Source of the DNA: Halioglobus sp.
GTDB lineage: Bacteria; Pseudomonadota; Gammaproteobacteria; Pseudomonadales; Halieaceae
Assembly: GCA_013214285.1 (NCBI GenBank)
Contig: JABSPW010000001.1
Span: forward strand, 16,945-80,944
Length of the DNA: 64,000 nt
Reading direction: 5' to 3'
Shown here: positions 26,148 to 43,085 of the stretch, one piece after another
How the letters are laid out: every line of letters starts with the position of its first letter
Numbering within the stretch: the first letter of the stretch is position 1
Translations under genes and position numbers: made by a program
The notes under the pieces: generated by a model
Told to the model about the DNA's origin: nothing
Seen by the model: the letters and a program-made list of their open reading frames with translations, nothing else
The model's database searches: none

Positions 26148-26428
26148 CAATGGCTCGCATACGGGCCATTTTCTGATGTCAAATAACTCGCAACATCGTG
26201 CCAATCGTCACCACCGCCTTGACCACCCCACCTGTCTCTGAATGCCCCTCGGCTTTTTAATGTTGCTTAAAGGAGACTCACCATCTCTCTGTTTTTATTG
26301 CTTTTTTTGAACTGACGCCATATTGCGTCGCATTATCGCGACACTGGCCCTATGTACTACCGACAATTTCACCCCTATACGCCCCCTACTATGCCCTATC
26401 TCTATGTTTTTCCGGCGTAAAGTAGAGT

Positions 26429-26445
26429 TGGCACGGTTTAAGCAT
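26429..26445 (+). promoter_or_regulatory. Candidate sigma54 (-24/-12) promoter for beta-helix gene copy 1
   Basis: TGGCACGGTTTAAGCAT has GG and GC at consensus spacing relative to TGGCACG-N4-TTGCW. It sits inside a 45-nt block conserved with the copy-2 upstream region. Confidence 0.4.
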
Positions 26446-26673: not shown

Positions 26674-28623
26674 ATGAAAAAGATCGTATTGCAATACATC
26701 ACCGAACGCTTTCAGAAAAATAAGAATGCTCAAGGTGACAAAAGACACCCAAAAATGCGCACACTGCTACCCGGATTGGCGCTGCTGCTGTCGTGTCATC
26801 TTGTTTTACCGTCGGCGGCATCCGCAGCCAACTACTACGTCCACGCGAGCAAGGGCTCAAATTCCAGCAGCGGTAAAGCACCTGACGCCGCCTTCCGCGA
26901 TCTTAGCTATGCGATTAGGAGGCTGCGCGCCGGCGACACACTCTTTGTGCGTGCCGGTACCTACCGAGAAAAGATGTCCAGCTTGTCTGCCAGCGGCACA
27001 CGAAGCGCCCCCATCGTGGTGAAGGCTTATGGCAACGAGAAACCGATTATTCGGACTAGCAACATTACGGTGCTTGCCAATGCGAACTGGTGGGTTTTCG
27101 AGGGACTCACGTTTCAGACGTCCGAGCAAATACGGCTGGGGGAACGGACTAGGCTCTCGTGCCACAGCTGGGCAAACAATATCACGTTTAGGAGAAATAC
27201 CTTTCAAAATAGCAGTGCTAACGCACTTGTCCTGAACTGCGCGCGCCAGATCAATATAGACAGCAACGTGTTCTTTAACATTCGCAGTCGTCAAATCTCT
27301 AAGGACGCATACGGCGTCAAGTCAACTGTTGCGGCACACAATATAGTAATCAGCAACAACCGATTCACCGATATTGGTGGTGATGGCATTCAGCTGGTAG
27401 GCGATGTAAGGAATGTTCAAATTATCGATAATGAGTTTGAAGTGGTGCATCCCTACCGCTATCGAACTGAAAACGGAAACGTGGATTCGTCGAATCCTAA
27501 ACGCTTTGGCAGCGTGGGCGAGAATGCCATCGACCTTAAGGGCGGGCCTGGGCCTTTCACTATCGCAGGCAATGTCATCCATGGTTTTCGCCCCACTATC
27601 AAGGGGACGCAGGATGCATCAGGCGCGATGGGCGTGGGTATCACAATGAGCCACGCAAATGATCGATCGGTCTATATCTACAAGAACCATTTCTACGATA
27701 ACGTCTATGACATTAAAATTAACGGGCATGAGACCAGAAGTGAAATTGCCTACAATATTTTCGAGAATTCGGTGGTCGCTGACCCCACGGTTTATGGGAA
27801 AAAGACGCAGACGCCCAGGGCATTACACCTGGAGAACACTGGCAACTCCCGGGTCTATAACAACATATTTCACAATGATGTAGCGGGTGACAAGATACTA
27901 CTGTTCATCGACGGCGTGCGGAACGTGTTGTTGCAAAACAACGTATTTAGCAACGGTAGAATGGGAGGAAAAGGGGGGCAGTTCTCCAGTGACCACAATG
28001 CCTTCTCTGGCATCACCGATAAGATGGATGACAACTTCAACGGCGTGCGCGATGTCACAGGTAATCTGCGCATGAATTGGTCAACCTGGAAGCCGAGGAG
28101 TAATAGTCCGCTGATCGACGCTGGAATGCGCGTACAAAACAGCCTACAAACTGATTACTATGCGGTATCCGACTTTTTCGGGGCACCCATCAGGGGCTTA
28201 GGTCCAGATATTGGCGCCACAGAGTTTGGCGGCACCACCACAACAGCAGCTGAGCCGGAGCCCCCTCAAGCGGCGCTCGTCACCGGCCCAACCTTATCTG
28301 AACCGCCACCGCCTTCTGTTAACTCAGGCTCTAATCAGTCATTCGTATCGATTCTTGGGCTGTCTAAAGGTGATACGGTGTACGGCCAGGTCACGTTTTC
28401 AGTAGACGCACAGGACCCCAGTGGGATTGAGAGGGTAGGCATAAAAGTACAGGATCTGGAGGAAAAGGGCAGAAATAAACGGTTCTATATTGACGACAAC
28501 TGGCCCTATGAATTCACCATAGATTTTTCCCCATACGAGGGTAAGGATGTAAAGTTGGTGGCATACGGTTTCAGTAAAGATGGGTCTAAAAGGAAGACAC
28601 CCATAGTACTCAGTGTGAAGTAA
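26674..28623 (+). CDS. Secreted right-handed parallel beta-helix protein with PT-rich linker and C-terminal Ig-like domain (polysaccharide lyase, hydrolase or epimerase candidate)
   Basis: The signal peptide is MRTLLPGLALLLSCHLVLPSAASA. The alternative start at 26755 matches copy 2 better, while the ATG at 26674 has a GGGGG RBS-like run. The N-terminus is DUF1565-like (NYYVHASKGSNSSSGKAPDAAFRDLSYAIRRLRAGDTLFVRAGTY). Beta-helix rungs repeat (ITFRRNTFQNS, IDSNVFFNI, VISNNRFTDI, IYKNHFYDN, RVYNNIFHND, LLQNNVFSNG). Confidence 0.8.
   Translation: MKKIVLQYITERFQKNKNAQGDKRHPKMRTLLPGLALLLSCHLVLPSAASAANYYVHASKGSNSSSGKAPDAAFRDLSYAIRRLRAGDTLFVRAGTYREKMSSLSASGTRSAPIVVKAYGNEKPIIRTSNITVLANANWWVFEGLTFQTSEQIRLGERTRLSCHSWANNITFRRNTFQNSSANALVLNCARQINIDSNVFFNIRSRQISKDAYGVKSTVAAHNIVISNNRFTDIGGDGIQLVGDVRNVQIIDNEFEVVHPYRYRTENGNVDSSNPKRFGSVGENAIDLKGGPGPFTIAGNVIHGFRPTIKGTQDASGAMGVGITMSHANDRSVYIYKNHFYDNVYDIKINGHETRSEIAYNIFENSVVADPTVYGKKTQTPRALHLENTGNSRVYNNIFHNDVAGDKILLFIDGVRNVLLQNNVFSNGRMGGKGGQFSSDHNAFSGITDKMDDNFNGVRDVTGNLRMNWSTWKPRSNSPLIDAGMRVQNSLQTDYYAVSDFFGAPIRGLGPDIGATEFGGTTTTAAEPEPPQAALVTGPTLSEPPPPSVNSGSNQSFVSILGLSKGDTVYGQVTFSVDAQDPSGIERVGIKVQDLEEKGRNKRFYIDDNWPYEFTIDFSPYEGKDVKLVAYGFSKDGSKRKTPIVLSVK
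26765..28234 (+). repeat. Direct repeat copy 1 (1,470 bp), identical to 41578..43047 wherever compared
   Basis: The offset is 14,813 bp. All nested six-frame ORF translations are identical between copies, and spot-checked lines match base for base. Boundaries were read from the first and last mismatching bases. Confidence 0.95.
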
Positions 28624-28677
28624 AATGACCGCTATCGGCTTTCGAGGATCGTTGATAAAAAAAGATTGACTACCGGA

Positions 28678-28711
28678 TCGACTAGGGGGCCTTGCCATCC
28701 TAGTCGACTTT
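28678..28711 (+). terminator. Possible terminator hairpin after beta-helix gene copy 1
   Basis: TCGACTAGG-GGGCCTTGCCAT-CCTAGTCGA is a 9-bp stem followed by CTTTG, a weak U-tract. Confidence 0.3.
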
Positions 28712-29040
28712 GCTGGGCCGAGGCTCTCGTCACTGGTGAAGGGTCTATGGCCGGTCTAGGAGAGACAATACACCGACCAAACGCAATTGCTACTGCTTTA
28801 CATGGCGTGTTTAGTGCGCGCCTGCGCTATCACTTTTATTTAGAATAATGCATCGGAAAGACCTCGATACCACAGCGCACCTATCAATTCACCGGAATTT
28901 CTGCAGCAATGTGCTGAGCGCAACTATTTTCCCTGTGCCCCAGCATGTATACTTCATATTACTAATGTTGGCCGTGATACATCATTCTGGCAACGCAAAA
29001 AACCCTCGTCAATTGAGTAAATAATCGGGATTACGGAACC

Positions 29041-29925
29041 GTGCCAATTCATAGCCGAGCAGGGGAACCCGCTGATTCAGGTGACGTGTGGCCCACATTT
29101 ATCGTCATCGGCGCACCAAAGGCAGGCACTACCTCGGTCTACCACTATCTTGATCAGCACCCGGACATTTATATGAGCCCGGTAAAGGAACCACATTATT
29201 TCTCCCTTACCGAGGAGATGTTACGCAATAACACAAAATCGCACATGCACGGAGTCACGTACACTAAAGAAGAATACCAAAATCTCTTTAGCGAAGCTGC
29301 TGGACAACGCGCCCTGGGCGAGGCGTCAACTGGTTATCTGTTGAGTTCCACTGCAGCCGAAAGTATCAGTTTATCCATACCCGATGTGAAGATAATCGTT
29401 ATGCTTCGAAATCCGGCTGACCGCGCTTTTTCGGGCTACCTCATGAAACTGCGCAACTCCAAGGAAACGTCATCATTAAAGGACGCCTTCGTACGAGGTA
29501 AGTCCTATGTGGAAGCCAGTTTCTACTATGAAAATCTACTCCGCTACTTTGACCGTTTCCCAATTGAACAAATAGGTATTTTCTTATTCGAGGAATTTAG
29601 CAAAGACCCCGTCGCAGTGATGCGCCGTATTTATGAATTTGTTGGTGTAGACGCGTTATTTCGTCCCGAGACAACTCAATATAACAGTGCTTGGATACCC
29701 AAGAATATGTTTTTAAATAGCCTAAGGACGTTCGTACTCCGGTCTAAACGAGTCCGATATCTGTTGAATAACACACCGGTCAAGCGCGCATTTCGAAAAT
29801 TGACACGAGAAGACCCGCCAGATTTTTCAGCGTCGGCTCGAATTCAGTTGTTAGATATTTATCGTCGGGATATTGCCAATGTCGAAGGATTGACTGGATT
29901 AAATCTGTCACATTGGCTAGATTAG
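29041..29925 (+). CDS. PAPS-dependent sulfotransferase (ST1)
   Basis: The 5'-PSB loop is VIGAPKAGTTSVYHYL and the 3'-PB motif is VMLRNPADRAFSGY. The start is GTG. Confidence 0.85.
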   Translation: MPIHSRAGEPADSGDVWPTFIVIGAPKAGTTSVYHYLDQHPDIYMSPVKEPHYFSLTEEMLRNNTKSHMHGVTYTKEEYQNLFSEAAGQRALGEASTGYLLSSTAAESISLSIPDVKIIVMLRNPADRAFSGYLMKLRNSKETSSLKDAFVRGKSYVEASFYYENLLRYFDRFPIEQIGIFLFEEFSKDPVAVMRRIYEFVGVDALFRPETTQYNSAWIPKNMFLNSLRTFVLRSKRVRYLLNNTPVKRAFRKLTREDPPDFSASARIQLLDIYRRDIANVEGLTGLNLSHWLD

Positions 29926-30050
29926 GTCGCTTCTCTTACACACTTCTTTTCCTTCAGCAAGCGCTGCATTCTGCCCAGTAGCCGAGACTGTACACTATGC
30001 GTCTATTGTGTAGACCGTCCTGACGACAAGATGCAAGAATTATTTCTGGC

Positions 30051-30965
30051 TCAAGGCTTGTAATCAAACTCGGCAAGTCGTGAGCCCGCGACAAAATTGA
30101 CCCATCGATGCATCCAGGGGGCCAAATGGTCACGCCAACGATCTACACCCTGCCGATCAAAACCCTGTCCTTTCTCTGTTGAGAAACTAGATCCGTACTT
30201 CGCTGGCTGTAGCATTGCAGGATCAAAGTCGAATTCAAGAAATTTACACAAGTCACGGACTGTACTTTCTGAATCATCCAATAGTTTTTCATAACATACC
30301 AACTTGTATCTTCCCGAATATTTGCGTGAGTAACGCTTGTGCAGACGGACTGCATACAGCCAGGTAACCGTAATATACATCACAACTGCGAGACTTTTGA
30401 TCGGACGAATTATGCGATCGAGAACGCCTCTCCCTGCTTGTACGTTTTTTCGCCACTCTGAAGCCAAAATCGCTCGGGGATCTCTAAAAGTATGGATCAC
30501 ATACGCATCAGGATACCAGGTCTTTATTTTTGGCACGTAATACAAGTTCCCTGGCATCTTTTCACCCATAGCAGCGTCCTGCGCTGCCTCTAGGCCATGA
30601 CTCGCAATCAAAGGCGCACGAATAATTGCGTCATATATCTCTCTTTCAGTTCGTGCCGAGTTCTTTACTAGATCACTCATGATATTGCGAGGTATATCTA
30701 AAAACTCGCCGCCCAGCATGCTCCAGTAGGAACCACGAGGTGACTTAGAATACATATAGTCGATCAGCCGCTCGACATTTTGTTCTTGCATCAAATTTCC
30801 AAACTTTGATAGCTTGTTCCGAAGACCAGGACGAAACATATCACCGAAGAACCAAGACTCCGGCGCTAGCTGACATATCCTGCCCGGATGGGCGCACACA
30901 ATACTCTTCATCATCTTGCTGCCTGTGCGAGGCAGTCCGACGATGAAAATGTACTTATTGCTCAT
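30051..30965 (-). CDS. PAPS-dependent sulfotransferase (ST2)
   Basis: The 5'-PSB loop is IVGLPRTGSKMM and the 3'-PB motif is IHTFRDPRAILASEW. Confidence 0.8.
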   Translation of the reverse strand: MSNKYIFIVGLPRTGSKMMKSIVCAHPGRICQLAPESWFFGDMFRPGLRNKLSKFGNLMQEQNVERLIDYMYSKSPRGSYWSMLGGEFLDIPRNIMSDLVKNSARTEREIYDAIIRAPLIASHGLEAAQDAAMGEKMPGNLYYVPKIKTWYPDAYVIHTFRDPRAILASEWRKNVQAGRGVLDRIIRPIKSLAVVMYITVTWLYAVRLHKRYSRKYSGRYKLVCYEKLLDDSESTVRDLCKFLEFDFDPAMLQPAKYGSSFSTEKGQGFDRQGVDRWRDHLAPWMHRWVNFVAGSRLAEFDYKP

Positions 30966-31224
30966 TCTAATAGCACTTCCGCCGCGATGACAATCTTAGG
31001 ACTCCTGTTATCTGCCGCTGAATTCCTTTAGTCATATTCACTTGAATCTGCGAATCCACACAAATTCTGACTGGCCTTTATGAATACTGGCCACAACATG
31101 ATAATTGATAGCTCACCATGCTCCCTGATGTGATAACACCGCCGTGGAAGACATCCCATATACAACCGTAAGACAGTAGCTGTAGAATCTAAAGAAACTC
31201 AATATGAAAAATCCTTAGACATTT

Positions 31225-32217
31225 CTAAGTAAACGTCGACCTTAGGTTTCTTAGCATCGTACTAAATCCGCTCAATTCTGCGTAAATGAGGATTTTGTCA
31301 TCAGTCGCTGGCATATTAATTCTAGCTATATCAAAGTCGCCGCGTCCCCTCTGCTTTATATTCATGAACGCTTTGTCGAAAATAGAAGCTTCACACCTGG
31401 AAATCACTCTATGGTCTACCTCGACAGGCCTACCAAATGGATAGCCATACCAATCAGAGTTATATAAATCTACATATCTTTCACAACGACGAAAGTCTTC
31501 ATCCAACTCTTGATCAGACAGCCTCGATAGAATCTCATGCGTGTAAGAGTGGCAAGCAACTCGGCATCCCGCTTCTACCAGCAACGCGATTTCCTCCGGA
31601 CACAAAGGTTCAAATCTCTGCAACCGATATCTATCTGTTATGTCCAAGGACTCGAAGCTATACTGCATCTCTAGCTCAGCCAAAAGCCGATCTTTTTCTG
31701 CATAGTTCTCAAGAAGCGATGCCCACACATCTTCAAATGCTTCCACTCTGTCCGTATCAGTAGCAATCTTTGTGATTTTTCCCTGAATATTGTAAGTCCC
31801 ACTGGGAACACATGTGAACCACATCAACATCCTGTCAACCCAGAGCATGCCTTGATTTTCAAAGTAGCTAGCAGGAATAAAAAATGTAGCCGACACCTCC
31901 TGCGCCTGCAGAATCGGTAACGCAACATACAAATTATTCTTATGACCATCGTCGAAGGTAATTAAAGCTTCTCCCGCTTCTAGATCTGAACCAATGGGCA
32001 ACTTAGCTTTGATAATAGAAAGCTGCCTCTCGAATACAGAAGCTTTTTGGGTTACAGATAAATGTGGATGGCTATCATACAACTCATCTTCTACTATATT
32101 GTGGTAGGTGATAACGATAGGTCGCTTCTTTATAACAAACAGTACATTAATGAAACCTAAATAGTAGGCCAATAAATACACTGTCTTCACAAGATATTTC
32201 TTCACTCTACAGTCCAA
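31225..32217 (-). CDS. Polysaccharide deacetylase (NodB homology domain)
   Basis: Motifs are ALITFDDGHKNN and CHSYTHE. The start is TTG per the ORF track, with an alternative GTG four codons in. Confidence 0.8.
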   Translation of the reverse strand: MDCRVKKYLVKTVYLLAYYLGFINVLFVIKKRPIVITYHNIVEDELYDSHPHLSVTQKASVFERQLSIIKAKLPIGSDLEAGEALITFDDGHKNNLYVALPILQAQEVSATFFIPASYFENQGMLWVDRMLMWFTCVPSGTYNIQGKITKIATDTDRVEAFEDVWASLLENYAEKDRLLAELEMQYSFESLDITDRYRLQRFEPLCPEEIALLVEAGCRVACHSYTHEILSRLSDQELDEDFRRCERYVDLYNSDWYGYPFGRPVEVDHRVISRCEASIFDKAFMNIKQRGRGDFDIARINMPATDDKILIYAELSGFSTMLRNLRSTFT

Positions 32218-32714
32218 CGCTCATCCTGAATATACTAATAGCCAATCGGATAAACAGCGTACGCACCATGGAAAAGGTTCTCGACGCTACCATGCCGGCT
32301 TAAATTACCGTATGAAAAATTGCATCCACACCATATAATGAGCACGATGATGACCACGAGATAGGTATAATACTGTCCTTTCTGGATACGCTGGAGGGGT
32401 GTCCTCAGTTACGTCTAAGGGGAGGCTCATCCAATTTCAAGCAGGGGTTACAGATAGGTTTCTCTATGCCCACGGCTCTCTACTCTGCTCCTTTCCCCGC
32501 ACATCTGAATGACTCTAATAATACTACTCCCTGATCGGAGACCTTGGAAGGCCAAGATAGTATCAAACTGTGACCTGGGTCCAGAGCAGAAGCTCCGGTG
32601 ACTGAATAATTGATCTATTTTAGGCTACAAACTGGCGAAACAAGTTACTTTCAATAGCGCATGCCTTTCATACAACTCTAGCTGACCGAATTTCACTGCA
32701 ATAGCTGATACAGG

Positions 32715-34106
32715 TTATCGTTCTGCCAAACCATACTTTTCTATCAAGCCGCCTTGTTTTTCACCAGAAGACGGATGTACCGTCATGGGTCTATCCGACG
32801 CTTTGAAAAGCTGATCTATCAACCCACACGCAATTGCCGCGTAAATATACAGCCTCTTTTCGGTGCCATTCCCCTCGACCAGCATTCTTATTAGCTGGCC
32901 TGATATTATTAAAACAAAAAACTGCGCGTTGCGCGAAAAATCAGCCGATGGATATTTCAATCTGCCCATTGCATACGGCAGTAAAGTGATGATTGGATAA
33001 AGCCAGATTAAAACAAAAGGCAGGTAGCCGACAATTCCCAAGTTCTTGAGAATGTTCAGATGGGTGGTATGACTTCCAATTCGCAGATGCCCTGCTAGCG
33101 TCTCCCCTGACACAAATCTTGAACCATCGCGAATCAAGCCGAATTCATAGGTTTTTCCATAGCCGGTACCTATCACCGGGTTCTCGATGATCTCTTCGAA
33201 CATCGGAAGAAAGTACTTATAGCGAGCGGGAGATGTTTGCTCGAGAGAGCCCAGCTTTGTTAGGCGCTTAAGATTGCCCGGCGGCGCCATTTCATGAATA
33301 ACCTGAACAAATACAACCATCAATATCATCGTCGAAACCATGAACCCAGTAAGTAAAAATCTTCTGTTCAAGAACATCCAAATCGCTATACACACTAGTG
33401 TTGAAAGAAGACCTACACGACCACCCCCAAGAACAATGCATAATCCAAAGTAGCCAACTAGAGTTTTTCTAAACCTATAACCACGTCCAGAGTTGCTGAG
33501 TGTTAAAATAAATCCAAGCTGAGCGAACACCTCGAGAAAAGGCATTCTCGTGCTGCCGGCACTAACACCACTGCCCCCAAGCTTATTTACCGACCACGCA
33601 TGCGTATCCAAGCCTGGCAAGCTCAAGCCTGTGAATAACATAAAGAGTCCAAGTAATGTCACGCCGAGGGCTATATAGAAAAGAATATCAAGGGCCTGAG
33701 CGATCGGTATTTTGCTTTTATGTAGCCAATACAACGCTGTCAAAAAAGTAAAAAGGCTGCAGAGAAATCGCCAATAGTGTTTTAGTCCACCGTCAGACCC
33801 TCCAACTAGACTACTCGCCATAACGGGATTACGAACATATGAAATCAAAACTACGAACATGAAAAGCGCGATAAACAAAAAATGCAGGTTGCCTTTCGTT
33901 GGCAGAAAGTTGCTGAGGTTTTTGGTAAGAACCGCATTTACAACGCTATAACCAAATATTAAAGGAATTAGGATATCCGCCAGCTGTAATTTAGCTACAC
34001 CCAAAGCTTTACCTGAAAAAGGGATGAAAGCCAAAATCATCACGATTACGAGAGGCGCTATAGACCGCAATCCTCTAAATCTAACCCGCTCTTGCTCTTT
34101 AATCAC
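32715..34106 (-). CDS. O-antigen ligase/polymerase-like polytopic membrane protein (Wzy_C type)
   Basis: The 463-aa protein has about 10-12 TM helices and a large loop region. This is typical of Wzy-type or exosortase-associated O-glycosylation-ligase-type proteins. No sequence-specific motif was verified. Confidence 0.65.
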   Translation of the reverse strand: MIKEQERVRFRGLRSIAPLVIVMILAFIPFSGKALGVAKLQLADILIPLIFGYSVVNAVLTKNLSNFLPTKGNLHFLFIALFMFVVLISYVRNPVMASSLVGGSDGGLKHYWRFLCSLFTFLTALYWLHKSKIPIAQALDILFYIALGVTLLGLFMLFTGLSLPGLDTHAWSVNKLGGSGVSAGSTRMPFLEVFAQLGFILTLSNSGRGYRFRKTLVGYFGLCIVLGGGRVGLLSTLVCIAIWMFLNRRFLLTGFMVSTMILMVVFVQVIHEMAPPGNLKRLTKLGSLEQTSPARYKYFLPMFEEIIENPVIGTGYGKTYEFGLIRDGSRFVSGETLAGHLRIGSHTTHLNILKNLGIVGYLPFVLIWLYPIITLLPYAMGRLKYPSADFSRNAQFFVLIISGQLIRMLVEGNGTEKRLYIYAAIACGLIDQLFKASDRPMTVHPSSGEKQGGLIEKYGLAER

Positions 34107-34185
34107 AATTCAATTCTCACATATTTAGTCTATGCCAAAACATTTTAGGAGACGCTGCAGTGGGATTTCTGATCGCTGTCAAACA

Positions 34186-36138
34186 CTAGTCCCCAAAATC
34201 CACCGACCACCGATACTCAAACGAGTCTCTCTTTGCACTTGGAATTTCAAGCACCAACTGAGACGCTTGTTCAAGAACACCATAACGAGGAGAATACGGG
34301 ACCTGTCTTAGTTCAGCACTCTCCCAGCCCTGTAGGCGCAGACGGCGCTTCGAACCATATCTCCGAAAAGTCCAACGTCCTTCAAATTGCACTGCAGGGT
34401 GAAGATTAAGAAACCAGACAACATTCTCTCCTGACAGACCGCTTATTACGTCATGTACTAACAAACGTCCTATTTCTTTGCTGATTTCCAATTTCCGCAT
34501 GATACAAATGATACGGTTATCTTTTTTTACTTTTATGCGACCTGCCACAGCGAGTGGTGAGGACTCAAACATTTCTCCTCGCGCGTGGTTGTCACTGTGA
34601 AAAGACCCTAATATGCGCATCTGCTCCGCATCTCCGACGAGAATCACATTGTGTGCAGCTCCGAGACGCATGGCGTCAGAAATTGATTTCTCATGGTAAC
34701 TGTATGTACCACGATCCACGAACCAGGAAAGCCCATCAACACACACGTTAATGCTGAGTAGATCGCAATGTGCGTGCGGCGCATACCCTGGTATTCTCGG
34801 AAAATCCATCGGACCAGACCGGAAATAGACTGAATAACGGCCATTATCGTCATGAACTCTGGACATCCAGTGCCCGCTCTTGGTGAGACTAGAGCACGTT
34901 TGAGCCATATCATCCCACTCACTAGCGTCTACCCCATACTCTGTGGAAAAATCAGAGGTAGAACACAAAGCCTTAAACATACTGAGACAGACCTCTATTG
35001 AATCCGGGCTCGCCTCATAAGTTGGCACGAGGACATGGCCATTATCCTCATCACCCACAATCACTATTCTGTCTTTATCGTACCTGAACACAGTAAGCGA
35101 TTTCAGATAGCAACTGATATAGACATCAAGACCTTCCGAGCCATCAACAATCAAACGAACTAATATGAGCGCCTCTAAAACGAAGCGGAGATAACTCGAC
35201 GCCTGTTCAACGTGCATACCATCGGAATGAGTTTGTCTATTGAGCTCGTCTAGCAACGACTTAATTAGTCCGTGTTTGCGATAGCGTACACCAGCGGCTT
35301 TCAAAAAATCAGGAAACAGCTCGAAAAATACAATTAAGGCACTCAGCTCTACTATAGTATGGTTATTCTTAAGTTCCGTATCACTGCCCTGATCGTCAAT
35401 ATCCACAGAAAGATTTTCGCAAAGAAACCGCATTTGCTGATACATACTGACTAATATTTTATCCTCATCATCAGCTTCAATGCTTCCCTCCTCAAGAAAC
35501 GCTAAGCTCAAACTCCACGATACCAATCGCAAACCAATTTCCATCGAGCTTATCCAATTTAAAGAGCAAAACACCGGATTCTTTTCGATCCAAGAAAGAA
35601 TATGTTTAACAATACAGCGGGCATATTCCTTGTTGGATGTGATGCGACTTGCAATTGATAGCCCTAGTAGGTGCTGCTGACGATTTAGCTCCCAGGTAAA
35701 TCGGAAATCACCATGCTTACCAGACGTATTCCTAAGCAGTCGACGATATCGAGTGTAGAAAATATTTGGCCATGTACCTTCACCAGTTATATCAACGTTC
35801 CAATCAAGACCTTCACCAAGCTCTATGGCTCTGTCATAGACGACTACCGATCCGCAAATAAGTGAATCAGAATATTTCATAAACTGGTTCCGGCGTTCAC
35901 TATCGTTAGCTATTAGAGTCGAAACATCTTTAAGATATTCCGAAAATGTTGATGTATTCAGCCGCTTACGCGCTTTTAAAACTAAACCATGGGACAAATC
36001 CTTCGGCCCGAGATCAAGCGGAGTAACCTTCCTGTAATCAGCACTTTTGCAACGCAAATATGTTTGTAGCTGCTGGGTCATCCTAGTCGTCCGGCGCATT
36101 ACTCCACGATATAGCCCCAAAGGTGTTAGCAAAGCCAT
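34186..36138 (-). CDS. Heparinase II/III-family protein, no signal peptide
   Basis: Motifs are NNHTIVELSAL and GYAPHAHCDLLSINV, paralogous to the NNHLIGELTGL and AAHGHADALS motifs of 51478..53454. The N-terminus MALLTPLGLYRGVMRRTTRM is not signal-like. Confidence 0.7.
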   Translation of the reverse strand: MALLTPLGLYRGVMRRTTRMTQQLQTYLRCKSADYRKVTPLDLGPKDLSHGLVLKARKRLNTSTFSEYLKDVSTLIANDSERRNQFMKYSDSLICGSVVVYDRAIELGEGLDWNVDITGEGTWPNIFYTRYRRLLRNTSGKHGDFRFTWELNRQQHLLGLSIASRITSNKEYARCIVKHILSWIEKNPVFCSLNWISSMEIGLRLVSWSLSLAFLEEGSIEADDEDKILVSMYQQMRFLCENLSVDIDDQGSDTELKNNHTIVELSALIVFFELFPDFLKAAGVRYRKHGLIKSLLDELNRQTHSDGMHVEQASSYLRFVLEALILVRLIVDGSEGLDVYISCYLKSLTVFRYDKDRIVIVGDEDNGHVLVPTYEASPDSIEVCLSMFKALCSTSDFSTEYGVDASEWDDMAQTCSSLTKSGHWMSRVHDDNGRYSVYFRSGPMDFPRIPGYAPHAHCDLLSINVCVDGLSWFVDRGTYSYHEKSISDAMRLGAAHNVILVGDAEQMRILGSFHSDNHARGEMFESSPLAVAGRIKVKKDNRIICIMRKLEISKEIGRLLVHDVISGLSGENVVWFLNLHPAVQFEGRWTFRRYGSKRRLRLQGWESAELRQVPYSPRYGVLEQASQLVLEIPSAKRDSFEYRWSVDFGD

Positions 36139-36143
36139 CTCAA

Positions 36144-37439
36144 TTACACCACGCTGCGAAAAACCGACTCGAGCTTCCTCGTAAGATACTTACGGTCAAA
36201 CTCTTTAAGACCACTAATATCATTCAGCGACATTGAACCAGCCTGCCAATGCTTGAAGCACTTCAATATACATTGATAAATCGCCTCTTCATTGTCAGGC
36301 TCTACTACTTGCCCTAGTCCGTATTTCTGTACAAGATGGGCCGCAGCACTATGCTTGCTATCAAGCAACAGCATGCTATTCCGACTGCCCCAATATTCAT
36401 AAAGTTTTCCCGGCACGAGCGATGGCATGTCATAATTGATTACCACGGGCAGGTGAGCCTTAACGAGAGTCTCTACGAAACGCTCACGTTGCATGTAATC
36501 GACTCGCCTGACGACACCACCTAGCTCAAGCCTTTCCACAAGCTGCGCTTGCGCAGATGGCATCCTGCCTAAAATTAGAAACTCTATCTGCGTTGCGGCA
36601 TTCGGTATATCTGAAATTATTCGCCTTAAAGCCCGGAAGAGGTGTGACAAATCCCTACGATCAGAAAATATGCCCGCGTGAATCAACGTGAACTTATCAA
36701 ATTTTTCCGGTGGATTTTCCCAGTATTCTTCATACTCGCTGACATCGCATCCATTCGGGATCATTTCAAATTTCTCTGCAAATTCAGGATACTTTTTCTT
36801 ATACCGATCTAGACTATAGGGTGTCACAGTAATTATCTTTTCAGCATTTTTTATACATTTATACTCCATGCGAGATTCAATCAGGTCTCTATACCGCTGT
36901 AATCCTCGGTTCCTTAATGGGTGTATCCAATCGTCTTTAATGTCGATCACGAGAGGAAGACCCGTTTCTTTTTTTATAGCCACTGCGGATAGCAATACGG
37001 AATAGGGAGGTGCTGTGGCATAAATAATCGAGTACTTGTGCTGTGAGTGCTCCCTTCGTGCTGCCTGACGTAAATTACGCCTCCAAAGAACTTTGTCATC
37101 TGGAATCATTAAGTACTTCCTCAATGGCAAAAGTACAGCAAGCTTCATTTTTCGAAGCAACTTGGACGCTTTCCCATATTCACTGGCGATACCTTTAGGT
37201 TCTCCCGTATCTGTCCTTACTAGCTTAATGTCTTGAGGCACTTGGGCCACGCTGTCCTGTGATTCCTTCGTTACCCACAGCAAGTCAATATCTGATTTGA
37301 CTGTTAGGACCGTCGGCTCCCAACCATTGCTTTCTCTATTTAGAAACGTAAGGAACTTAAGCAATCGAATTGACCCACCTACAGAGCCAAACGGAGGAAA
37401 CGTATGCACCAGCACGAGAACCCTATTACCTATTTCCAC
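36144..37439 (-). CDS. Glycosyltransferase (GT-B, group 1-like)
   Basis: The N-terminus is RVLVLVHTFPPFGSVGGS. The C-terminal region LVPGKLYEYWGS is E-x7-E-like. Confidence 0.7.
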   Translation of the reverse strand: MEIGNRVLVLVHTFPPFGSVGGSIRLLKFLTFLNRESNGWEPTVLTVKSDIDLLWVTKESQDSVAQVPQDIKLVRTDTGEPKGIASEYGKASKLLRKMKLAVLLPLRKYLMIPDDKVLWRRNLRQAARREHSQHKYSIIYATAPPYSVLLSAVAIKKETGLPLVIDIKDDWIHPLRNRGLQRYRDLIESRMEYKCIKNAEKIITVTPYSLDRYKKKYPEFAEKFEMIPNGCDVSEYEEYWENPPEKFDKFTLIHAGIFSDRRDLSHLFRALRRIISDIPNAATQIEFLILGRMPSAQAQLVERLELGGVVRRVDYMQRERFVETLVKAHLPVVINYDMPSLVPGKLYEYWGSRNSMLLLDSKHSAAAHLVQKYGLGQVVEPDNEEAIYQCILKCFKHWQAGSMSLNDISGLKEFDRKYLTRKLESVFRSVV

Positions 37440-37554
37440 TTAACAATCTCCTTTTGAGCAAACATCTACTAGCTTTTTTCTAGAACGAACCATTTTCTGA
37501 AACCTTACCTACATGATTTGCAGAAGCAACGCCTTAACCCCCCAAGTATTGATT

Positions 37555-38475
37555 TCAGAAAGGTTTTGCATTAAGCGGAATACCATCTGTTTGGTCATAG
37601 TAGTGGTGTAGATTAAACGTCTGCAAAACTAATTCTATTTCTTCTTGCTGTTGATTACTCAAAGACGTCTTCCATCGATTGACATAGTCCTCTTTTGGCT
37701 TATCAATGTTCTCTAATGCCAGCTCTCTCGATATTCTTCCGGCATGTTCAGATTTGCCAATACTCATTAGTATTTTTTTAATTTCAGTATATGGCTGGGT
37801 AATAAGATTCTCGTAATGAACAAATATGAAATTTTCTCTATCGGAATTTTTTAGCAACATAAGATTATCCAAGCTCCAGCTGACAGCTAGACGAAATGCC
37901 TTACTCCCTCCGATCCGGTAAAACTTCGCCTGCTCAGCCGTCAGTAGCGGCTCAATATCTGAATAGCTATGGCTATGGTCCGGCACAGGCCAATCTGACT
38001 TGATGCGAGATGCAATACACGCATTGGGGTTACGCATAAGGACAATGAATGGGCATTGATGCAACATGTCAGACAAATAGTCTAGGTAGTGGTTGCCGCG
38101 GACAATTTTTACGATTCGGCCATCATAAAATAGCCTGGAGCCTGTGTTTGTATATTTCGAACCTATGAACCCTTCAGAAAAGCTAGCCAGGATTGCCTGC
38201 TGGTAGATGGTGTTTTTCTCGATGGTAGTGCGGGATTCTCTCGGATTGAAGAAGCTCATTTCTCGAGACGAAGATGGATTTAGCGGTTCATGTATTGGCC
38301 GGGCTCTAAGAACATTTGAAAGTAATCTCCCTAAGAAGGTTGTACCGCTTCGCGTGTAGCCCGCCAAAACCGCCCATGGCAGAGGATGACTCCCGGTTTC
38401 TATGAAATACCCCCCCCAATTGAGCCGTCTAACTACTTTACGGTAGGTATTTATTGCTACTAAATGAGCGTTCAT
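37555..38475 (-). CDS. PAPS-dependent sulfotransferase (ST3)
   Basis: The 5'-PSB loop is LAGYTRSGTTFLGRLL and the 3'-PB motif is IVLMRNPNACIASRI. The start overlaps the ST4 stop (ATGA). Confidence 0.75.
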   Translation of the reverse strand: MNAHLVAINTYRKVVRRLNWGGYFIETGSHPLPWAVLAGYTRSGTTFLGRLLSNVLRARPIHEPLNPSSSREMSFFNPRESRTTIEKNTIYQQAILASFSEGFIGSKYTNTGSRLFYDGRIVKIVRGNHYLDYLSDMLHQCPFIVLMRNPNACIASRIKSDWPVPDHSHSYSDIEPLLTAEQAKFYRIGGSKAFRLAVSWSLDNLMLLKNSDRENFIFVHYENLITQPYTEIKKILMSIGKSEHAGRISRELALENIDKPKEDYVNRWKTSLSNQQQEEIELVLQTFNLHHYYDQTDGIPLNAKPF

Positions 38476-39248
38476 CTATCGTCATCCGACAATAAGTACT
38501 CAAATTCCGAACCACGGAGTTCGCGCTCTACTTCTTCATAGTTGCTAATCAAACTAGCAATAGTTTTGTTCGTAAGTTTGCTAAATGGCGAAGTGAGCTC
38601 GCCATTGCATTTTACATCTATGAAATCTAGAACACGCTTTTGCTCACGAATAGGGTCTTCAAGCAGTGATTCATAAGCCACACGAAGATACGGTTGGTTT
38701 TCGAATTTCGTCGCCCAAATTGCGTCTAGGTTTTTGAGCCTAGCCAATTTGTGTTGTAGCGATTTAACGGGGACTACCACTGGCTGCCTATCAAGGGCTT
38801 TAACGGAGCGATAAATGCCAGTGGACTCCGACGCCATTCTGGATATGATAACTCTCAGATAGTTATTTCGTGTGTTGTGTATTATCGACAATTTATGACT
38901 CCGCATATAGCTCAACGCAGAAGGGTATAGCCACGGAATATATCGGGCTTGACTATACATGTATTTGAAACCGATAGCCTGACCCTCATTGTGTGAATAG
39001 AAATTGTCCAAGAACTCTCTAACGAGGCCGCCGCGCGCGATACCATGCCTGATTTTTCTATTTGTAGTCTCCGAAGCATATTTACGAATGGCATGTTCAC
39101 TACCAGATCTCGGGAAGAAGATTTCACCAGCACAGAGAATATCACTGTGACTATTCAGCGACGTTATCAACATTGTAGATCCCGTCCTCTGCGTCGAGAC
39201 AACCACAAACCTAGACATAGCGAACGCTCCGATAAATCCCGCGGCCAA
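38472..39248 (-). CDS. PAPS-dependent sulfotransferase, NodH/Stf0-like (ST4)
   Basis: The 5'-PSB loop is VVVSTQRTGSTMLITSL and the 3'-PB-like motif is IIHNTRNNYLRVIISRM. Confidence 0.75.
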   Translation of the reverse strand: MAAGFIGAFAMSRFVVVSTQRTGSTMLITSLNSHSDILCAGEIFFPRSGSEHAIRKYASETTNRKIRHGIARGGLVREFLDNFYSHNEGQAIGFKYMYSQARYIPWLYPSALSYMRSHKLSIIHNTRNNYLRVIISRMASESTGIYRSVKALDRQPVVVPVKSLQHKLARLKNLDAIWATKFENQPYLRVAYESLLEDPIREQKRVLDFIDVKCNGELTSPFSKLTNKTIASLISNYEEVERELRGSEFEYLLSDDDR

Positions 39249-39276
39249 ATGTAATCACCTGACTTATAAGCCGCCT

Positions 39277-40584
39277 TTAGGCAGCATCTCCTCTTGCTTT
39301 TAAAAACGGCTTGATCTCAGCAATAAAATCAAAGTAGGAACGTAGTGGTATCTCATTGTTCCAAACAACAACTACTAACACGATAGAAGAAGAGACAATG
39401 TATGCTACGCTTGCGCCGATTCCTGCGCCCAAGATACCGTACGCTGGTATCAGGAATACATCTAAAATAATCATGACTACTACTGCGCAGAAAATAGATA
39501 GGCTGTAGGTCCATGCTCGTCCCTGCATTATCAAATTGGGTGTGAGGGTCTTGGATATACTGATAGCTAATACTCCTGGAAGAAGAACGATAACCACTGG
39601 CCATGCATCCAAAAACTCTTCGCCAAATAAAACGAGAATGATCCACTTTGTGAGGAAAAAAATCGGCATCATGCACGCAGCCGTAAATGCAAATATTAGG
39701 CTGTTTAGTCTAGCTGTTAGGGTCGCTGATCGTCTGTCACCCTCCTTCGCAAGACGTGATAGCAAGACTTTATTCGCAACATTTGGAATTCTCCACAGGA
39801 CTTCACCTAATGTGAGTGCAATGCTGTATATGCCTACCTCTCTCGGCGTCAGAAAGTAAGCCACCAAGAAAATATCAAAGCGATACTCGAGGTAAGTTAA
39901 GAGCTGGCCTAAATGCGTTTTTAAGCCAAACAGCGTCATTGGCTTAAGTAATGCTTTATCAACTTTAAAAAGTCGAAAGCCACTTCGATATACCATTACA
40001 ATCGAAACGATTAACATCCCGGCGATACCAAGGAACGCGCACTTGACGGCATTTTCCAGAGTGACCGTTCCTAACAATACGACCGTCGAGAGTGAGATAC
40101 ACAATATGGCTGGTCTTGATAGCCGAACGAGGACTGATCGTGGGATGTCATAATCAGCATTTAGCATTGATCGCATATTGAGCGCAAATAGGTACATCGG
40201 GATCATGGACAGCGTAATGAAGATAAGCTTCCATGGTATTTCTTGATACATTCGATCATAAAACAGCGCAACGCCAATAGTAGCAATCAGCGCGGCAATT
40301 GGACCACTCACAATCGCAATAAGAATTGCGTTGCTCGTTAACTCATCGAAAGATGTTTTTTTCCTAAAATACGCCCCACTGAACTCTACTTTTAAAGCGA
40401 ACATAGATATCGCCATCATTATAGTAGAATTTAGTAAGGTGAAATTTCCTTTGTTATCCGGTCCCAGCGCTCTGGCTAAAATGACGCTCGTGACCATCGT
40501 CAACCCGAGTACAACAAAGTTGCCGCCCAGGCTGATTCCGAAGAACTTTACGAATTTTCTCTGTGTTAATTTCCTTATCATCAT
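39277..40584 (-). CDS. wzx: Wzx-type polysaccharide flippase (MOP superfamily)
   Basis: The 435-aa protein is polytopic with about 12-14 TM helices. The N-terminus is MMIRKLTQRKFVKFFGISLGGNFVVLGLTMV, typical of polysaccharide biosynthesis/export flippases. Confidence 0.8.
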   Translation of the reverse strand: MMIRKLTQRKFVKFFGISLGGNFVVLGLTMVTSVILARALGPDNKGNFTLLNSTIMMAISMFALKVEFSGAYFRKKTSFDELTSNAILIAIVSGPIAALIATIGVALFYDRMYQEIPWKLIFITLSMIPMYLFALNMRSMLNADYDIPRSVLVRLSRPAILCISLSTVVLLGTVTLENAVKCAFLGIAGMLIVSIVMVYRSGFRLFKVDKALLKPMTLFGLKTHLGQLLTYLEYRFDIFLVAYFLTPREVGIYSIALTLGEVLWRIPNVANKVLLSRLAKEGDRRSATLTARLNSLIFAFTAACMMPIFFLTKWIILVLFGEEFLDAWPVVIVLLPGVLAISISKTLTPNLIMQGRAWTYSLSIFCAVVVMIILDVFLIPAYGILGAGIGASVAYIVSSSIVLVVVVWNNEIPLRSYFDFIAEIKPFLKARGDAA

Positions 40585-41333
40585 TCATCCTGCTAACGGG
40601 CTATTGGCATATATCCATAAGGTAATACTCTGACACCGCAGCACACTTTTGCGACTCGTCACTGGATCTAGAGCGCACTGTTGGCGTATGTGGGCCTATC
40701 GCACTGCGCAGGTCGCCTGGTTTACGCTCCCGTCACTTGCACTGGCACGTGTTCTCAACTATGGATAGATAGAGGCAGCTTACTCCGATGAAAAACTGGT
40801 CTGTGATGCTAATTGATCAACCCATGATGCGATCGCAGTAACGTGGCAGGGGTGCACGATTAGCATGATACAGTGCAATAACCGCGCCTGAACTTCACCC
40901 GGCCAAGTCTGTGACCTAATACTCAGGAATTCTGTCACATTTCACCGTGCTGGCCGTCCCGCCTAGGTAGGGCCCAAAACAGCAGGCGCCTACCATGATA
41001 AATCCGGGCAACAGCAAACCACTGCGGATACCTCAGACAACTGCCCGAAACATTTCAGGCAAGCCTCCAACGGGGCGTAAAGCGTTAGACTTGGGTCTCA
41101 CAACAACAGCGGGGCAACACAGCACCACCGGGCAACTGCTCGGTTACCGCGGCCTATCGTGCTGGACGTCGCTTTATAGAGACACGCTAAGGCTTTGTTT
41201 TTAAGTGCATATTTTAGACTGGGGCACTTGTTGTCGCTTTTTAGCGACCAATGGAATGCACGATCTGGCAGCATGTGCCAATTCGCGGGTCGAAATACCC
41301 ATATCTCTTTGTTTTTCAACAGTTAAATATAGT

Positions 41334-41349
41334 TGGCACAGTTTGAGCT
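41334..41349 (+). promoter_or_regulatory. Candidate sigma54 (-24/-12) promoter for beta-helix gene copy 2
   Basis: TGGCACAGTTTGAGCT has GG and GC at consensus spacing. It lies in a 45-nt block (41306-41350) matching 26401-26445 at 33 of 45 positions ungapped. Confidence 0.4.
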
Positions 41350-41561
41350 TGCGTTAAACATCACAAGGGCAGCAACCCGTAAGACTCTAGTCAGTATGCG
41401 GGATGAACTGCGGCCAAAGACCGTTTACTGAAAAACTAGATATATATTTAAAATATCATTAATGTGTAAAATCATTCGATAATTATATATCTGGACAGCA
41501 CACCCAGGAAGCATTCACCTCAGGTGCGAGTTGATGACCGAGACTGACAAGGCAAAAATCG

Positions 41562-43085
41562 ATGACGATAAGTAAATTGCTACCCGGATTGGCGCTGCTG
41601 CTGTCGTGTCATCTTGTTTTACCGTCGGCGGCATCCGCAGCCAACTACTACGTCCACGCGAGCAAGGGCTCAAATTCCAGCAGCGGTAAAGCACCTGACG
41701 CCGCCTTCCGCGATCTTAGCTATGCGATTAGGAGGCTGCGCGCCGGCGACACACTCTTTGTGCGTGCCGGTACCTACCGAGAAAAGATGTCCAGCTTGTC
41801 TGCCAGCGGCACACGAAGCGCCCCCATCGTGGTGAAGGCTTATGGCAACGAGAAACCGATTATTCGGACTAGCAACATTACGGTGCTTGCCAATGCGAAC
41901 TGGTGGGTTTTCGAGGGACTCACGTTTCAGACGTCCGAGCAAATACGGCTGGGGGAACGGACTAGGCTCTCGTGCCACAGCTGGGCAAACAATATCACGT
42001 TTAGGAGAAATACCTTTCAAAATAGCAGTGCTAACGCACTTGTCCTGAACTGCGCGCGCCAGATCAATATAGACAGCAACGTGTTCTTTAACATTCGCAG
42101 TCGTCAAATCTCTAAGGACGCATACGGCGTCAAGTCAACTGTTGCGGCACACAATATAGTAATCAGCAACAACCGATTCACCGATATTGGTGGTGATGGC
42201 ATTCAGCTGGTAGGCGATGTAAGGAATGTTCAAATTATCGATAATGAGTTTGAAGTGGTGCATCCCTACCGCTATCGAACTGAAAACGGAAACGTGGATT
42301 CGTCGAATCCTAAACGCTTTGGCAGCGTGGGCGAGAATGCCATCGACCTTAAGGGCGGGCCTGGGCCTTTCACTATCGCAGGCAATGTCATCCATGGTTT
42401 TCGCCCCACTATCAAGGGGACGCAGGATGCATCAGGCGCGATGGGCGTGGGTATCACAATGAGCCACGCAAATGATCGATCGGTCTATATCTACAAGAAC
42501 CATTTCTACGATAACGTCTATGACATTAAAATTAACGGGCATGAGACCAGAAGTGAAATTGCCTACAATATTTTCGAGAATTCGGTGGTCGCTGACCCCA
42601 CGGTTTATGGGAAAAAGACGCAGACGCCCAGGGCATTACACCTGGAGAACACTGGCAACTCCCGGGTCTATAACAACATATTTCACAATGATGTAGCGGG
42701 TGACAAGATACTACTGTTCATCGACGGCGTGCGGAACGTGTTGTTGCAAAACAACGTATTTAGCAACGGTAGAATGGGAGGAAAAGGGGGGCAGTTCTCC
42801 AGTGACCACAATGCCTTCTCTGGCATCACCGATAAGATGGATGACAACTTCAACGGCGTGCGCGATGTCACAGGTAATCTGCGCATGAATTGGTCAACCT
42901 GGAAGCCGAGGAGTAATAGTCCGCTGATCGACGCTGGAATGCGCGTACAAAACAGCCTACAAACTGATTACTATGCGGTATCCGACTTTTTCGGGGCACC
43001 CATCAGGGGCTTAGGTCCAGATATTGGCGCCACAGAGTTTGGCGGCAAACCGCTGCAGGGAGCGCCGCCTCCTGGCTGTCTCTAA
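41562..43085 (+). CDS. Secreted right-handed parallel beta-helix protein, copy 2 (lacks linker and Ig-like domain)
   Basis: The protein is identical to copy 1 from LLPGLALLLSC to GATEFGG. It has its own start MTISK and then diverges to KPLQGAPPPGCL-stop. Confidence 0.75.
   Translation: MTISKLLPGLALLLSCHLVLPSAASAANYYVHASKGSNSSSGKAPDAAFRDLSYAIRRLRAGDTLFVRAGTYREKMSSLSASGTRSAPIVVKAYGNEKPIIRTSNITVLANANWWVFEGLTFQTSEQIRLGERTRLSCHSWANNITFRRNTFQNSSANALVLNCARQINIDSNVFFNIRSRQISKDAYGVKSTVAAHNIVISNNRFTDIGGDGIQLVGDVRNVQIIDNEFEVVHPYRYRTENGNVDSSNPKRFGSVGENAIDLKGGPGPFTIAGNVIHGFRPTIKGTQDASGAMGVGITMSHANDRSVYIYKNHFYDNVYDIKINGHETRSEIAYNIFENSVVADPTVYGKKTQTPRALHLENTGNSRVYNNIFHNDVAGDKILLFIDGVRNVLLQNNVFSNGRMGGKGGQFSSDHNAFSGITDKMDDNFNGVRDVTGNLRMNWSTWKPRSNSPLIDAGMRVQNSLQTDYYAVSDFFGAPIRGLGPDIGATEFGGKPLQGAPPPGCL
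41578..43047 (+). repeat. Direct repeat copy 2 (1,470 bp), identical to 26765..28234 wherever compared
   Basis: Same evidence as copy 1. Confidence 0.95.

Follow-up and report, generated by a model that had tools for sequence, protein, structure and literature searches.

Two beta-helix genes with a common core

A stretch of 64,000 nucleotides of Halioglobus sp. (assembly GCA_013214285.1, contig JABSPW010000001.1, positions 16,945 to 80,944; hereafter the window) was analyzed. Pfam and NCBIfam matches delimit a Wzx/Wzy-dependent exopolysaccharide (EPS) locus at ~14.7-53.5 kb (14763-53454), with housekeeping genes on either side. Inside this locus lie two forward-strand genes, bhA and bhB, which share a long direct repeat. 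bhA (26674..28623, +) encodes a 649-aa secreted right-handed beta-helix protein (NQX87061.1 = P0056), and bhB (41562..43085, +) a 507-aa secreted beta-helix protein (NQX87071.1).

The central parts of both genes were found to be the same. Direct string comparison of 26765..28234 (copy 1, +) with 41578..43047 (copy 2, +), each 1,470 bp long and lying at an offset of 14,813, gave 1470/1470 identical bases; an initial annotation of this DNA had already called the two segments identical wherever compared, and the full comparison bears it out. Identity of this extent is far beyond chance. It stops sharply at both ends, since extension by one base on either side already fails, and 100-nt blocks flanking the repeats show ~20-35% identity at the 14,813-bp offset, which is the random level. 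A repeat search revealed the pair to be the sole direct or inverted repeat of at least 40 nt within the window. The copies are in direct orientation and separated by a spacer of 13,343 bp (28235-41577).

The repeat covers 490 codons, and its limits coincide with module boundaries of the encoded proteins. It starts in the hydrophobic core of the signal peptide (h-region), directly before LLPGLALLLSCHLVLPSAASA/ANYY, and ends with the last beta-helix residue, directly after DIGATEFGG; copy 1 thus runs from the signal-peptide h-region to the end of the bhA beta-helix domain, and copy 2 is the corresponding region of bhB. Open reading frames (ORFs), Pfam and BLAST agree with the initial annotation in assigning the repeats to the cores of two genes that encode secreted beta-helix proteins and have wholly different 3' ends. 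The ORF of bhA extends over 26560/26674-28623, with a Shine-Dalgarno sequence GGGGGA ahead of the ATG at 26674. In its product, an N-terminal extension precedes the core, and a Pro/Thr linker joins the core to an Ig-like Big_7 domain at the C-terminus; linker and Big_7 are encoded by the gene-specific 3' end (28235..28623, +). Pfam matches were Beta_helix (1.9e-10) and Big_7 (2.9e-4), the former being matched by bhB too, and an AF2 model of bhA with a mean pLDDT of 77 folds residues 50-470 into a right-handed beta-helix and residues 557-648 into a beta-sandwich. bhB consists of MTISK, the core and a tail of 12 residues (...PPPGCL) encoded at its specific 3' end (43048..43085, +), which reads KPLQGAPPPGCL and then stop. 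Once the signal peptide was cleaved, mature bhA and bhB would be predicted to differ only at the C-terminus. Homology was sought between the 3' flanks of the two copies (bhA 28235-28623 and the sequence following copy 2), but none was found; likewise, no older-core remnant or second Big_7 tail was found elsewhere in the window. Exact-protein look-ups of bhB, of the homologue P0001, and of the sulfatase and the second sulfotransferase of the locus returned no record.

Upstream of the two genes, BLAST similarity comprises a module of ~50 nt, TATCTCTWTGTTTTTC-N13-AGTTGGCACRGTTTRAGC, and nothing more. The initial annotation had described the 5' regions as homologous but diverged; what they have in common proved to be this promoter-like module, which occurs family-wide, and the leaders of ~230-245 nt between module and gene are unrelated in sequence. 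In bhA the module is found at 26397..26444 (+; TATCTCTATGTTTTTC-N13-AGTTGGCACGGTTTAAGC), 245 nt before the ATG, and in bhB at 41302..41349 (+; TATCTCTTTGTTTTTC-N13-AGTTGGCACAGTTTGAGC), 228 nt before the ATG. The part TTGGCAC-N5-xxGC (26428-26443 and 41333-41348) matches the -24/-12 spacing of sigma54 promoters. Counted from the start codon, the element is located at -245 in bhA, -228 in bhB, -242 in P0003, -238 in P0004, -253 in P0006, -195 in P0005 and -198 in P0009; the contigs hosting it in homologues are L014 (~242 nt), L017 (~238 nt), L004 (~253 nt) and, for P0005 and P0009, L003. Hence, seven of eight beta-helix genes from two sister clades and several organisms or samples carry a sigma54-type element at -195 to -253; upstream of more distant homologues (Pseudohalioglobus lutimaris, L005, L008), such a site was not found.

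Judged by this distribution, the promoter module is a feature of the family and not a trace of a recent duplication. Its conservation argues that bhA and bhB are separate transcription units of old standing and not a fresh duplicate of a whole gene. The sequences further suggest a putative regulon of RpoN and an enhancer-binding protein, with a leader of ~230 nt that is conserved in length and without sequence conservation. Scans for sigma70 promoters and terminators in the window gave numbers at or below shuffle expectation. As a separate observation, the window contains three copies of the motif ATCTCTNTGTTTTT (26283-26296, 26398-26411 and 41303-41316), where 0.06 would be expected; all three lie upstream of the sigma54-like sites, ~17 nt (or 132 nt) ahead of TTGGCAC, and may represent a regulator or integration host factor (IHF) site.

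Assembly and independent contigs

The proteins encoded by bhA and bhB are labelled 'MAG: ... [Halioglobus sp.]' (MAG, metagenome-assembled genome) and derive from an 84,169-bp contig. Near-identical contigs at ENA bear labels of the type 'BOEU19-1_SAMN097...', which we take to mean Boeuf et al. 2019, i.e. the Station ALOHA 4,000-m sediment-trap project PRJNA482655. Reads of this project are 150-bp paired-end Illumina reads (PMC6575173), and its DT-Halioglobus-1 MAG was obtained with metaSPAdes, reassembly by SPAdes --careful --trusted-contigs and FinishM scaffolding (Leu et al. 2022, PMC9426571). Sample labels and dates indicate that the window contig is probably a product of this pipeline. 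If so, a length of 1,470 bp is beyond the reach of any single read or read pair and, hence, the repeat interior is a consensus of both copies. One graph path traversed twice gives 100% identity with knife-edge boundaries by construction, with small differences popped as bubbles. The term 'identical' is to be read as 'at least nearly identical', and the sequence may be a collapsed consensus. As the source is a metagenome assembly, exact identity is in part a technical statement and not the property of a finished genome; true 100% identity in the cell would be an inference from it. There is a practical warning in this, namely that perfect long repeats in short-read MAGs are not evidence of very recent events.

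An assembly artefact has to be considered at this point: similar cores may have been collapsed into one path, or a false second copy or join may have been created from chained strain variants. Such an origin is in line with the MAG label, with the 150-bp pairs underlying the MAG from the same project, with a repeat longer than both read and insert, and with exact identity up to knife-edge ends, which is the signature of one graph edge walked twice. Five small independent contigs bear on it. L001 (ENA SAMN09765676) matches 41285-43137 at 99.84% and crosses both junctions of copy 2; L002 (ENA SAMN09710607) matches 41844-43663 at 98.96% and crosses the right junction of copy 2. L018 (ENA SAMN09765686; 25998-27446, 99.93%) runs across the left end of copy 1 and 682 nt into the core. 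L020 (ENA SAMN09710607; 28276-30035, 99.2%) contains the Big_7 tail and the first sulfotransferase gene of the spacer (ST1), starting 42 nt past the right end of copy 1, and L019 (Logan SRR28397307; 28989-36780, 99.91%) shows the spacer interior to be contiguous. Three of the four junctions are therefore crossed by independent contigs, and the core-to-Big_7 junction (28234/28235) was missed by 42 nt. No contig crossing the latter was found; a protein search with the tail only came back empty, the tail lying behind a 507-aa cluster representative. A scan of JGI metagenomes with bhA found no relative.

Most of these contigs argue against an artefact. The left contexts of L018 and L001, the right bhB context of L001 and L002 and the Big_7-ST1 context of L020 all occur in single-sample assemblies at 99-99.9%. 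Both gene contexts co-occur in one sample, where L002 and L020 are each ~1% diverged; the same sample and the same divergence suggest that one strain carries both the bhA and the bhB context. Furthermore, graph logic demands that a linear genome with the spacer has a core on each side. The alternative to this, a one-copy chromosome accompanied by a 14.8-kb circle, is implausible, given that no wzx or wzy other than those of the spacer is present in the locus and that the spacer is devoid of replication or integration genes; with wzx, wzy and its synteny to a relative (L003, see below), the spacer belongs in the locus. Collapse would in any case require near-identical copies, so that a recent homogenisation would survive it. 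In favor of an artefact remain the core-to-Big_7 junction, which is the one lacking an independent contig, population variants within the core, and the behavior of L001, which continues unbroken from the repeat into the bhB flank at either end, as if the sample contained no competing branch. Taken together, we regard an artefact as unlikely, though deserving of serious attention, and the two-copy arrangement as highly probable.

The population variants are as follows. At position 913 of L018, which corresponds to position 26910 of the window (repeat position 146; 41723 in the other copy), a T-to-A exchange converts the Tyr codon TAT to TAA and creates an early stop in the core. The contig has the bhA left flank; the stop could mean that some members of the population have one copy pseudogenised, or that a variant specific to one copy was collapsed in the MAG. 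In L002, nucleotides 1-57 include an in-frame stop and are without a match in the window; they join the core at repeat position 267 (41844 / 27031). This 5' end may represent a 5'-truncated or rearranged core allele or a contig-end artefact.

The beta-helix family and the origin of the identical cores

The family of bhA and bhB is small: at E<=1e-30, 54 cluster representatives were found among 1.84 billion. Loci of this kind typically contain more than one member, for example L003 with three (two with Big_7, of 613 and 647 aa, and a short one of 508 aa), P. lutimaris with at least two copies and a fragment, and a Chloroflexi MAG with three in tandem. Co-resident paralogues in these relatives show 49-62% DNA identity with a longest identical run of 14 nt, and mosaic conversion tracts were sought between them and none was found. 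Against this background, the identity of the Halioglobus cores is exceptional and must be recent. The P. lutimaris fragment is the 563-bp contig72 of strain HF004 (L009), which encodes residues 170-349 of a third beta-helix paralogue and shows 72% DNA identity to the other two. With only 72% identity, it was not shown to be a collapsed repeat of those two; this tiny contig may mark another beta-helix repeat that breaks an assembly.

Members of the family exchange their C-terminal modules, which are Big_7, a JDVT-CTERM sorting signal or a short ...PPGC tail. P0010, P0014 and the L008 protein match JDVT-CTERM (NF033191) with 36-41 bits at a cut-off of 27. These homologues possess an invariant Cys followed nine residues on by D-P (D-L in the L008 protein). 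The sequences of bhB, P0002 and P0003 terminate with, or shortly after, the counterpart of the Cys that opens JDVT-CTERM, as if they were 'pre-processed'; P0002 and P0003 end with ...PPGC, comparable to ...PPPGCL of bhB. A transmembrane or Arg-rich segment, as expected of a pseudogenised sorting signal, was not found after the bhB stop in any frame.

In a neighbor-joining tree of the core, the Halioglobus sequence clusters (98% bootstrap) with P0002 and P0003, which are short forms with a PPGC tail, and the nearest Big_7 forms constitute a separate clade (100%). The PPGC tail is accompanied by a long basic N-terminus in P0002 and by a short, bhB-like one in P0003. bhB therefore looks like an intact native unit, as it has the short N-terminus and the PPGC tail of P0003. 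Since the core clusters with the PPGC short forms and bhB has the PPGC tail, bhB would be the native owner of the core and bhA a chimera; this argument from the tails is suggestive only. Big_7 tails are found in several clades, which weakens it, and the bhA tail can be aligned with those of P0004, P0005 and P0007 at ~30% identity, a level that is uninformative.

These findings are best accounted for, in our view and with modest confidence, by an old pair of paralogues whose core was recently homogenised. According to this reading, bhA and bhB would be long-standing paralogues of a small family of secreted beta-helix carbohydrate-active enzymes in loci for sulfated EPS, each keeping its own sigma54-type promoter, leader, N-terminus and C-terminal module. 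The whole homologous part of one gene (490 codons) would have been overwritten by that of the other, through intrachromosomal gene conversion or duplicative replacement, most likely in the direction from bhB to bhA; mechanism and direction are both inferred. As an outcome, direct repeats of 1,470 bp would enclose the central wzx/wzy/sulfotransferase block; our best reading is that these are a by-product of paralogy and not a dedicated device. The initial annotation had offered gene conversion, a very recent duplication or Campbell-type integration; recent copying stands as the best biological explanation, and integration found no support.

Several points weigh against homogenisation of old paralogues. 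Classical conversion tracts end within homology and leave diverged but recognisable homology outside, but the present tract spans the entire homologous region and adjoins unrelated bases, with no diverged homologous margins. The divergence of paralogues in relatives and the absence of mosaic tracts between them indicate that conversion is not a general habit of the family, and partners so diverged would recombine poorly. In addition, the source is a MAG built probably from 150-bp reads, with the repeat interior unphased and the core-to-Big_7 junction uncrossed by independent contigs.

The same sharp limits would be expected if bhA had arisen de novo by partial duplication and domain shuffling, in which illegitimate recombination placed a copy of the bhB core between an existing sigma54 promoter with leader and a Big_7 sequence, with no earlier bhA core. 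This route would explain why the repeat ends are module boundaries, why no residual homology extends beyond the tract and why no remnant of an older core is present in the window, and it would dispense with homologous exchange, for which paralogues like those of the relatives are too diverged. It has to contend with three properties of bhA: the promoter is complete, family-typical and at the typical distance (-245), the Big_7 tail is alignable with P0004, P0005 and P0007, and the gene occupies the syntenic position of a long form beside the sulfotransferase/deacetylase/Wzy block. In L003, a long-form beta-helix gene is likewise followed by sulfotransferase, deacetylase, Wzy and glycosyltransferase genes on the opposite strand. 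Given promoter, tail and synteny, a pre-existing long-form gene is the simplest explanation, and we consider shuffling de novo improbable.

The base composition of the locus bears on a horizontal origin. The G+C content is 55-57% in the housekeeping flanks, 50.2% in the left part of the locus, 44.8% in the spacer and 46.7% in the right part. The spacer had been described as an AT-rich cassette; this holds for its G+C content, but the cassette is merely the low end of an AT-rich locus. In a Campbell-type event, a circle comprising 5'B-core-Big_7 tail and the 13-kb cassette would have crossed once into a resident 5'A-core-PPGC gene. The core-cassette-core topology in direct orientation is what a single crossover yields, the cassette has the lowest G+C content of the locus, and P0002 does join a long basic N-terminus to a PPGC tail. 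However, no integrase, transposase or att-like feature is present among the annotated ORFs of the window, and tRNA and Rfam scans of the window were empty. The incoming core would already have to be identical; bhB seems to be a native unit like P0003 and not the predicted chimera; the cassette contains the sole wzx/wzy and is syntenic with L003; and the right part of the locus is nearly as AT-rich. An origin of this kind appears very improbable, and old paralogues with a homogenised core remain the reading we prefer.

A bolder variant of the latter would be that one core is deliberately kept in two sigma54-driven editions differing at the C-terminus (Big_7 versus a PPGC stub mimicking JDVT-CTERM), with recurrent conversion and with excision, amplification or strain exchange of the cassette via the cores in particle-associated marine bacteria. 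This is a speculation to which we give little credence.

The exopolysaccharide locus and comparison with known systems

To the left of bhA, the locus encodes a Wza-like exporter, an outer-membrane barrel, a chain-length determinant, a tyrosine autokinase, an AAA ATPase, a WecA-like initiating transferase, a PrsT-like TPR protein and a sulfatase. The spacer contains, by Pfam, the sulfotransferase gene ST1 (29041-29925, +) and, on the reverse strand, ST2 (30051-30965), a polysaccharide deacetylase (31225-32217), a Wzy_C polymerase/ligase-like gene (32715-34106), a heparinase II/III-like gene (34186-36138), a GT4 glycosyltransferase (36144-37439), the sulfotransferases ST3 (37555-38475) and ST4 (38472-39248) and a Wzx-type flippase (39277-40584). 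bhB is followed directly by a nucleotide-sugar dehydrogenase gene (43767..45080, +) with the best scores to UDP-glucose 6-dehydrogenases, and further to the right by three glycosyltransferases, the sulfotransferase ST5, an Asn-synthase-like amidotransferase and a second heparinase II/III-like gene. Pfam/NCBIfam annotation of the window gave no second protein of the Wzx or Wzy type. The predicted functions of five sulfotransferases, the sulfatase, two heparinase II/III-like proteins and the UDP-glucose-dehydrogenase-like enzyme point to a heavily sulfated, glycosaminoglycan-like EPS. Outside the locus, a 242-aa ORF at 3142-3870 carries the Plug domain of a TonB-dependent receptor without the barrel and may be a truncated or frameshifted receptor gene.

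The activity of the beta-helix core was approached by comparison. bhA and bhB match Chondroitinas_B weakly (20.8-23 bits at a Pfam cut-off of 24), and Pfam matches of the core include Beta_helix and a Pel9A-like family (PF13229/PF22842). Foldseek returned GH136 lacto-N-biosidases, PL9 rhamnogalacturonan lyase, and PL6 alginate lyases with chondroitinase B in this order, whereas AlgE4 epimerase had rank 30 (E 9e-5) and RbmB lyase rank 44-46; E-values of the GH136, PL9 and PL6 matches were 1e-10 to 1e-5, and TM-scores were 0.3-0.55 at 11-14% identity. A profile search of PDB sequences gave only weak matches, to the N-terminal cap (PL6 lyases, GH136) and the Ig-domain. Thus, the proteins resemble PL6/PL9 lyases (chondroitinase B, AlyPL6, BT4170) and GH136 in their predicted right-handed parallel beta-helix and a PL6-like N-terminal cap motif, but they differ in having 11-14% identity, a Chondroitinase_B score below cut-off and no close solved relative. 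VGENAIDxK, RSR and PYRYR are invariant in the family, with E283, N284, D287, K289, R204, R206 and R264 among the invariant residues, a set that would be suitable for a putative lyase directed at uronates. An AlgG-like C5-epimerase supplied with GDP-mannuronate had initially been proposed as an alternative to a lyase. This does not agree with the core, in which no DPH(D/E) epimerase motif was found and AlgE4 ranks behind GH136, PL9 and PL6, nor with the dehydrogenase, which scores best as UDP-glucose 6-dehydrogenase with no GDP-mannose dehydrogenase family listed. Tentatively, bhA and bhB may be secreted enzymes that cleave or modify the locus's own glucuronate-containing sulfated polymer, a lyase being likelier than an epimerase.

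Between direct repeats of 1.5 kb at a distance of 13 kb, RecA-dependent recombination is possible, and from this general RecA biology the central block would be expected to be liable to deletion or amplification. Deletion would leave a chimeric bhA-5'/bhB-3' gene, in which promoter and 5' end come from bhA and the core is followed by the PPGCL tail; alternatively, the spacer would be amplified in tandem. The loss of 14,813 bp given in the initial annotation is correct and comprises, by Pfam, four of the five sulfotransferases, wzx, Wzy_C, one GT4, one heparinase II/III-like gene and the deacetylase. Contrary to the proposal made there, this would not switch the cell from one polymer type to another: the only wzx and wzy in the window are lost, and thus polymer assembly would be abolished irreversibly. 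The recombinant allele was also sought, and the five small independent contigs were all parental, a sample too small to exclude rare variants.

One could nevertheless suppose that the cores are kept identical as a selected device of phase or antigenic variation which toggles or swaps the EPS cassette. Direct repeats do flank essential polysaccharide genes here, as in the deletion-based capsule variation of Vibrio vulnificus wzb, and natural samples contain structural and nonsense variants of the core. Opposed to this are the lack of any deletion or reciprocal junction in the independent contigs, the irreversible loss of the only flippase and polymerase with no alternative polymer at hand, and the diverged, repeat-free paralogues of relatives, in which the arrangement is not conserved. 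We think such a device most unlikely and return to the homogenised core as the favored explanation. If the two-copy state with identical cores is real, the block of flippase, polymerase and four sulfotransferases would be structurally unstable in a deep-sea, particle-associated Halioglobus; this could yield EPS-null or amplified variants in nature and bears on particle attachment and carbon export.

Among known EPS loci, those of the XrtA/PEP-CTERM type are similar in that TIGR03007, 03015, 03018, 03027, 02917 and 03108 are the best NCBIfam matches here, for export protein, chain-length determinant, tyrosine autokinase, AAA ATPase, PrsT-like TPR protein and Asn-synthase-like amidotransferase. 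Unlike in those loci, every score is below the curated cut-off, and the present locus is Wzx/Wzy-dependent and unusually rich in sulfotransferases; exosortase, PEP-CTERM proteins and PrsK/PrsR were not found in the window. The beta-helix proteins themselves recall the 'choice-of-anchor' families and the sorting of JDVT-CTERM proteins by myxosortase (MrtJ) (Haft 2023, doi 10.1101/2023.06.07.544157). They have in common with this system the exchange of C-terminal modules and a weak choice_anch_Q match in the core, but bhA and bhB are without the tripartite sorting signal. With its sigma54-type promoters, interchangeable C-termini and link to JDVT-CTERM, the beta-helix family is probably a better lead for marine glycobiology than the repeat.

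With regard to instability, the cap b locus of Haemophilus influenzae is flanked by IS1016. In V. vulnificus, wzb is subject to deletion-type capsule variation through flanking direct repeats (PMC7247339). The Halioglobus repeats, like those of both systems, bracket essential polysaccharide genes and would give locked acapsular or EPS-null variants or amplified ones. The repeats of wzb and cap b are short oligomers or insertion sequences, and variants have been observed there; those of Halioglobus belong to functional genes, of which they are the coding cores, and a variant allele was not detected. Finally, concerted evolution by gene conversion between bacterial paralogues occurs, for example, in tuf and rrn copies. 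bhA and bhB resemble these in possessing an identical shared region within one replicon and differing flanks, the tract being a substrate for RecA-mediated deletion and duplication; they are unlike them in that the tract takes in the whole homologous region, the partners differ in domain architecture and the sequence comes from a short-read MAG. The repeat pair would accordingly be one further instance of a kind of genome feature that is already known.

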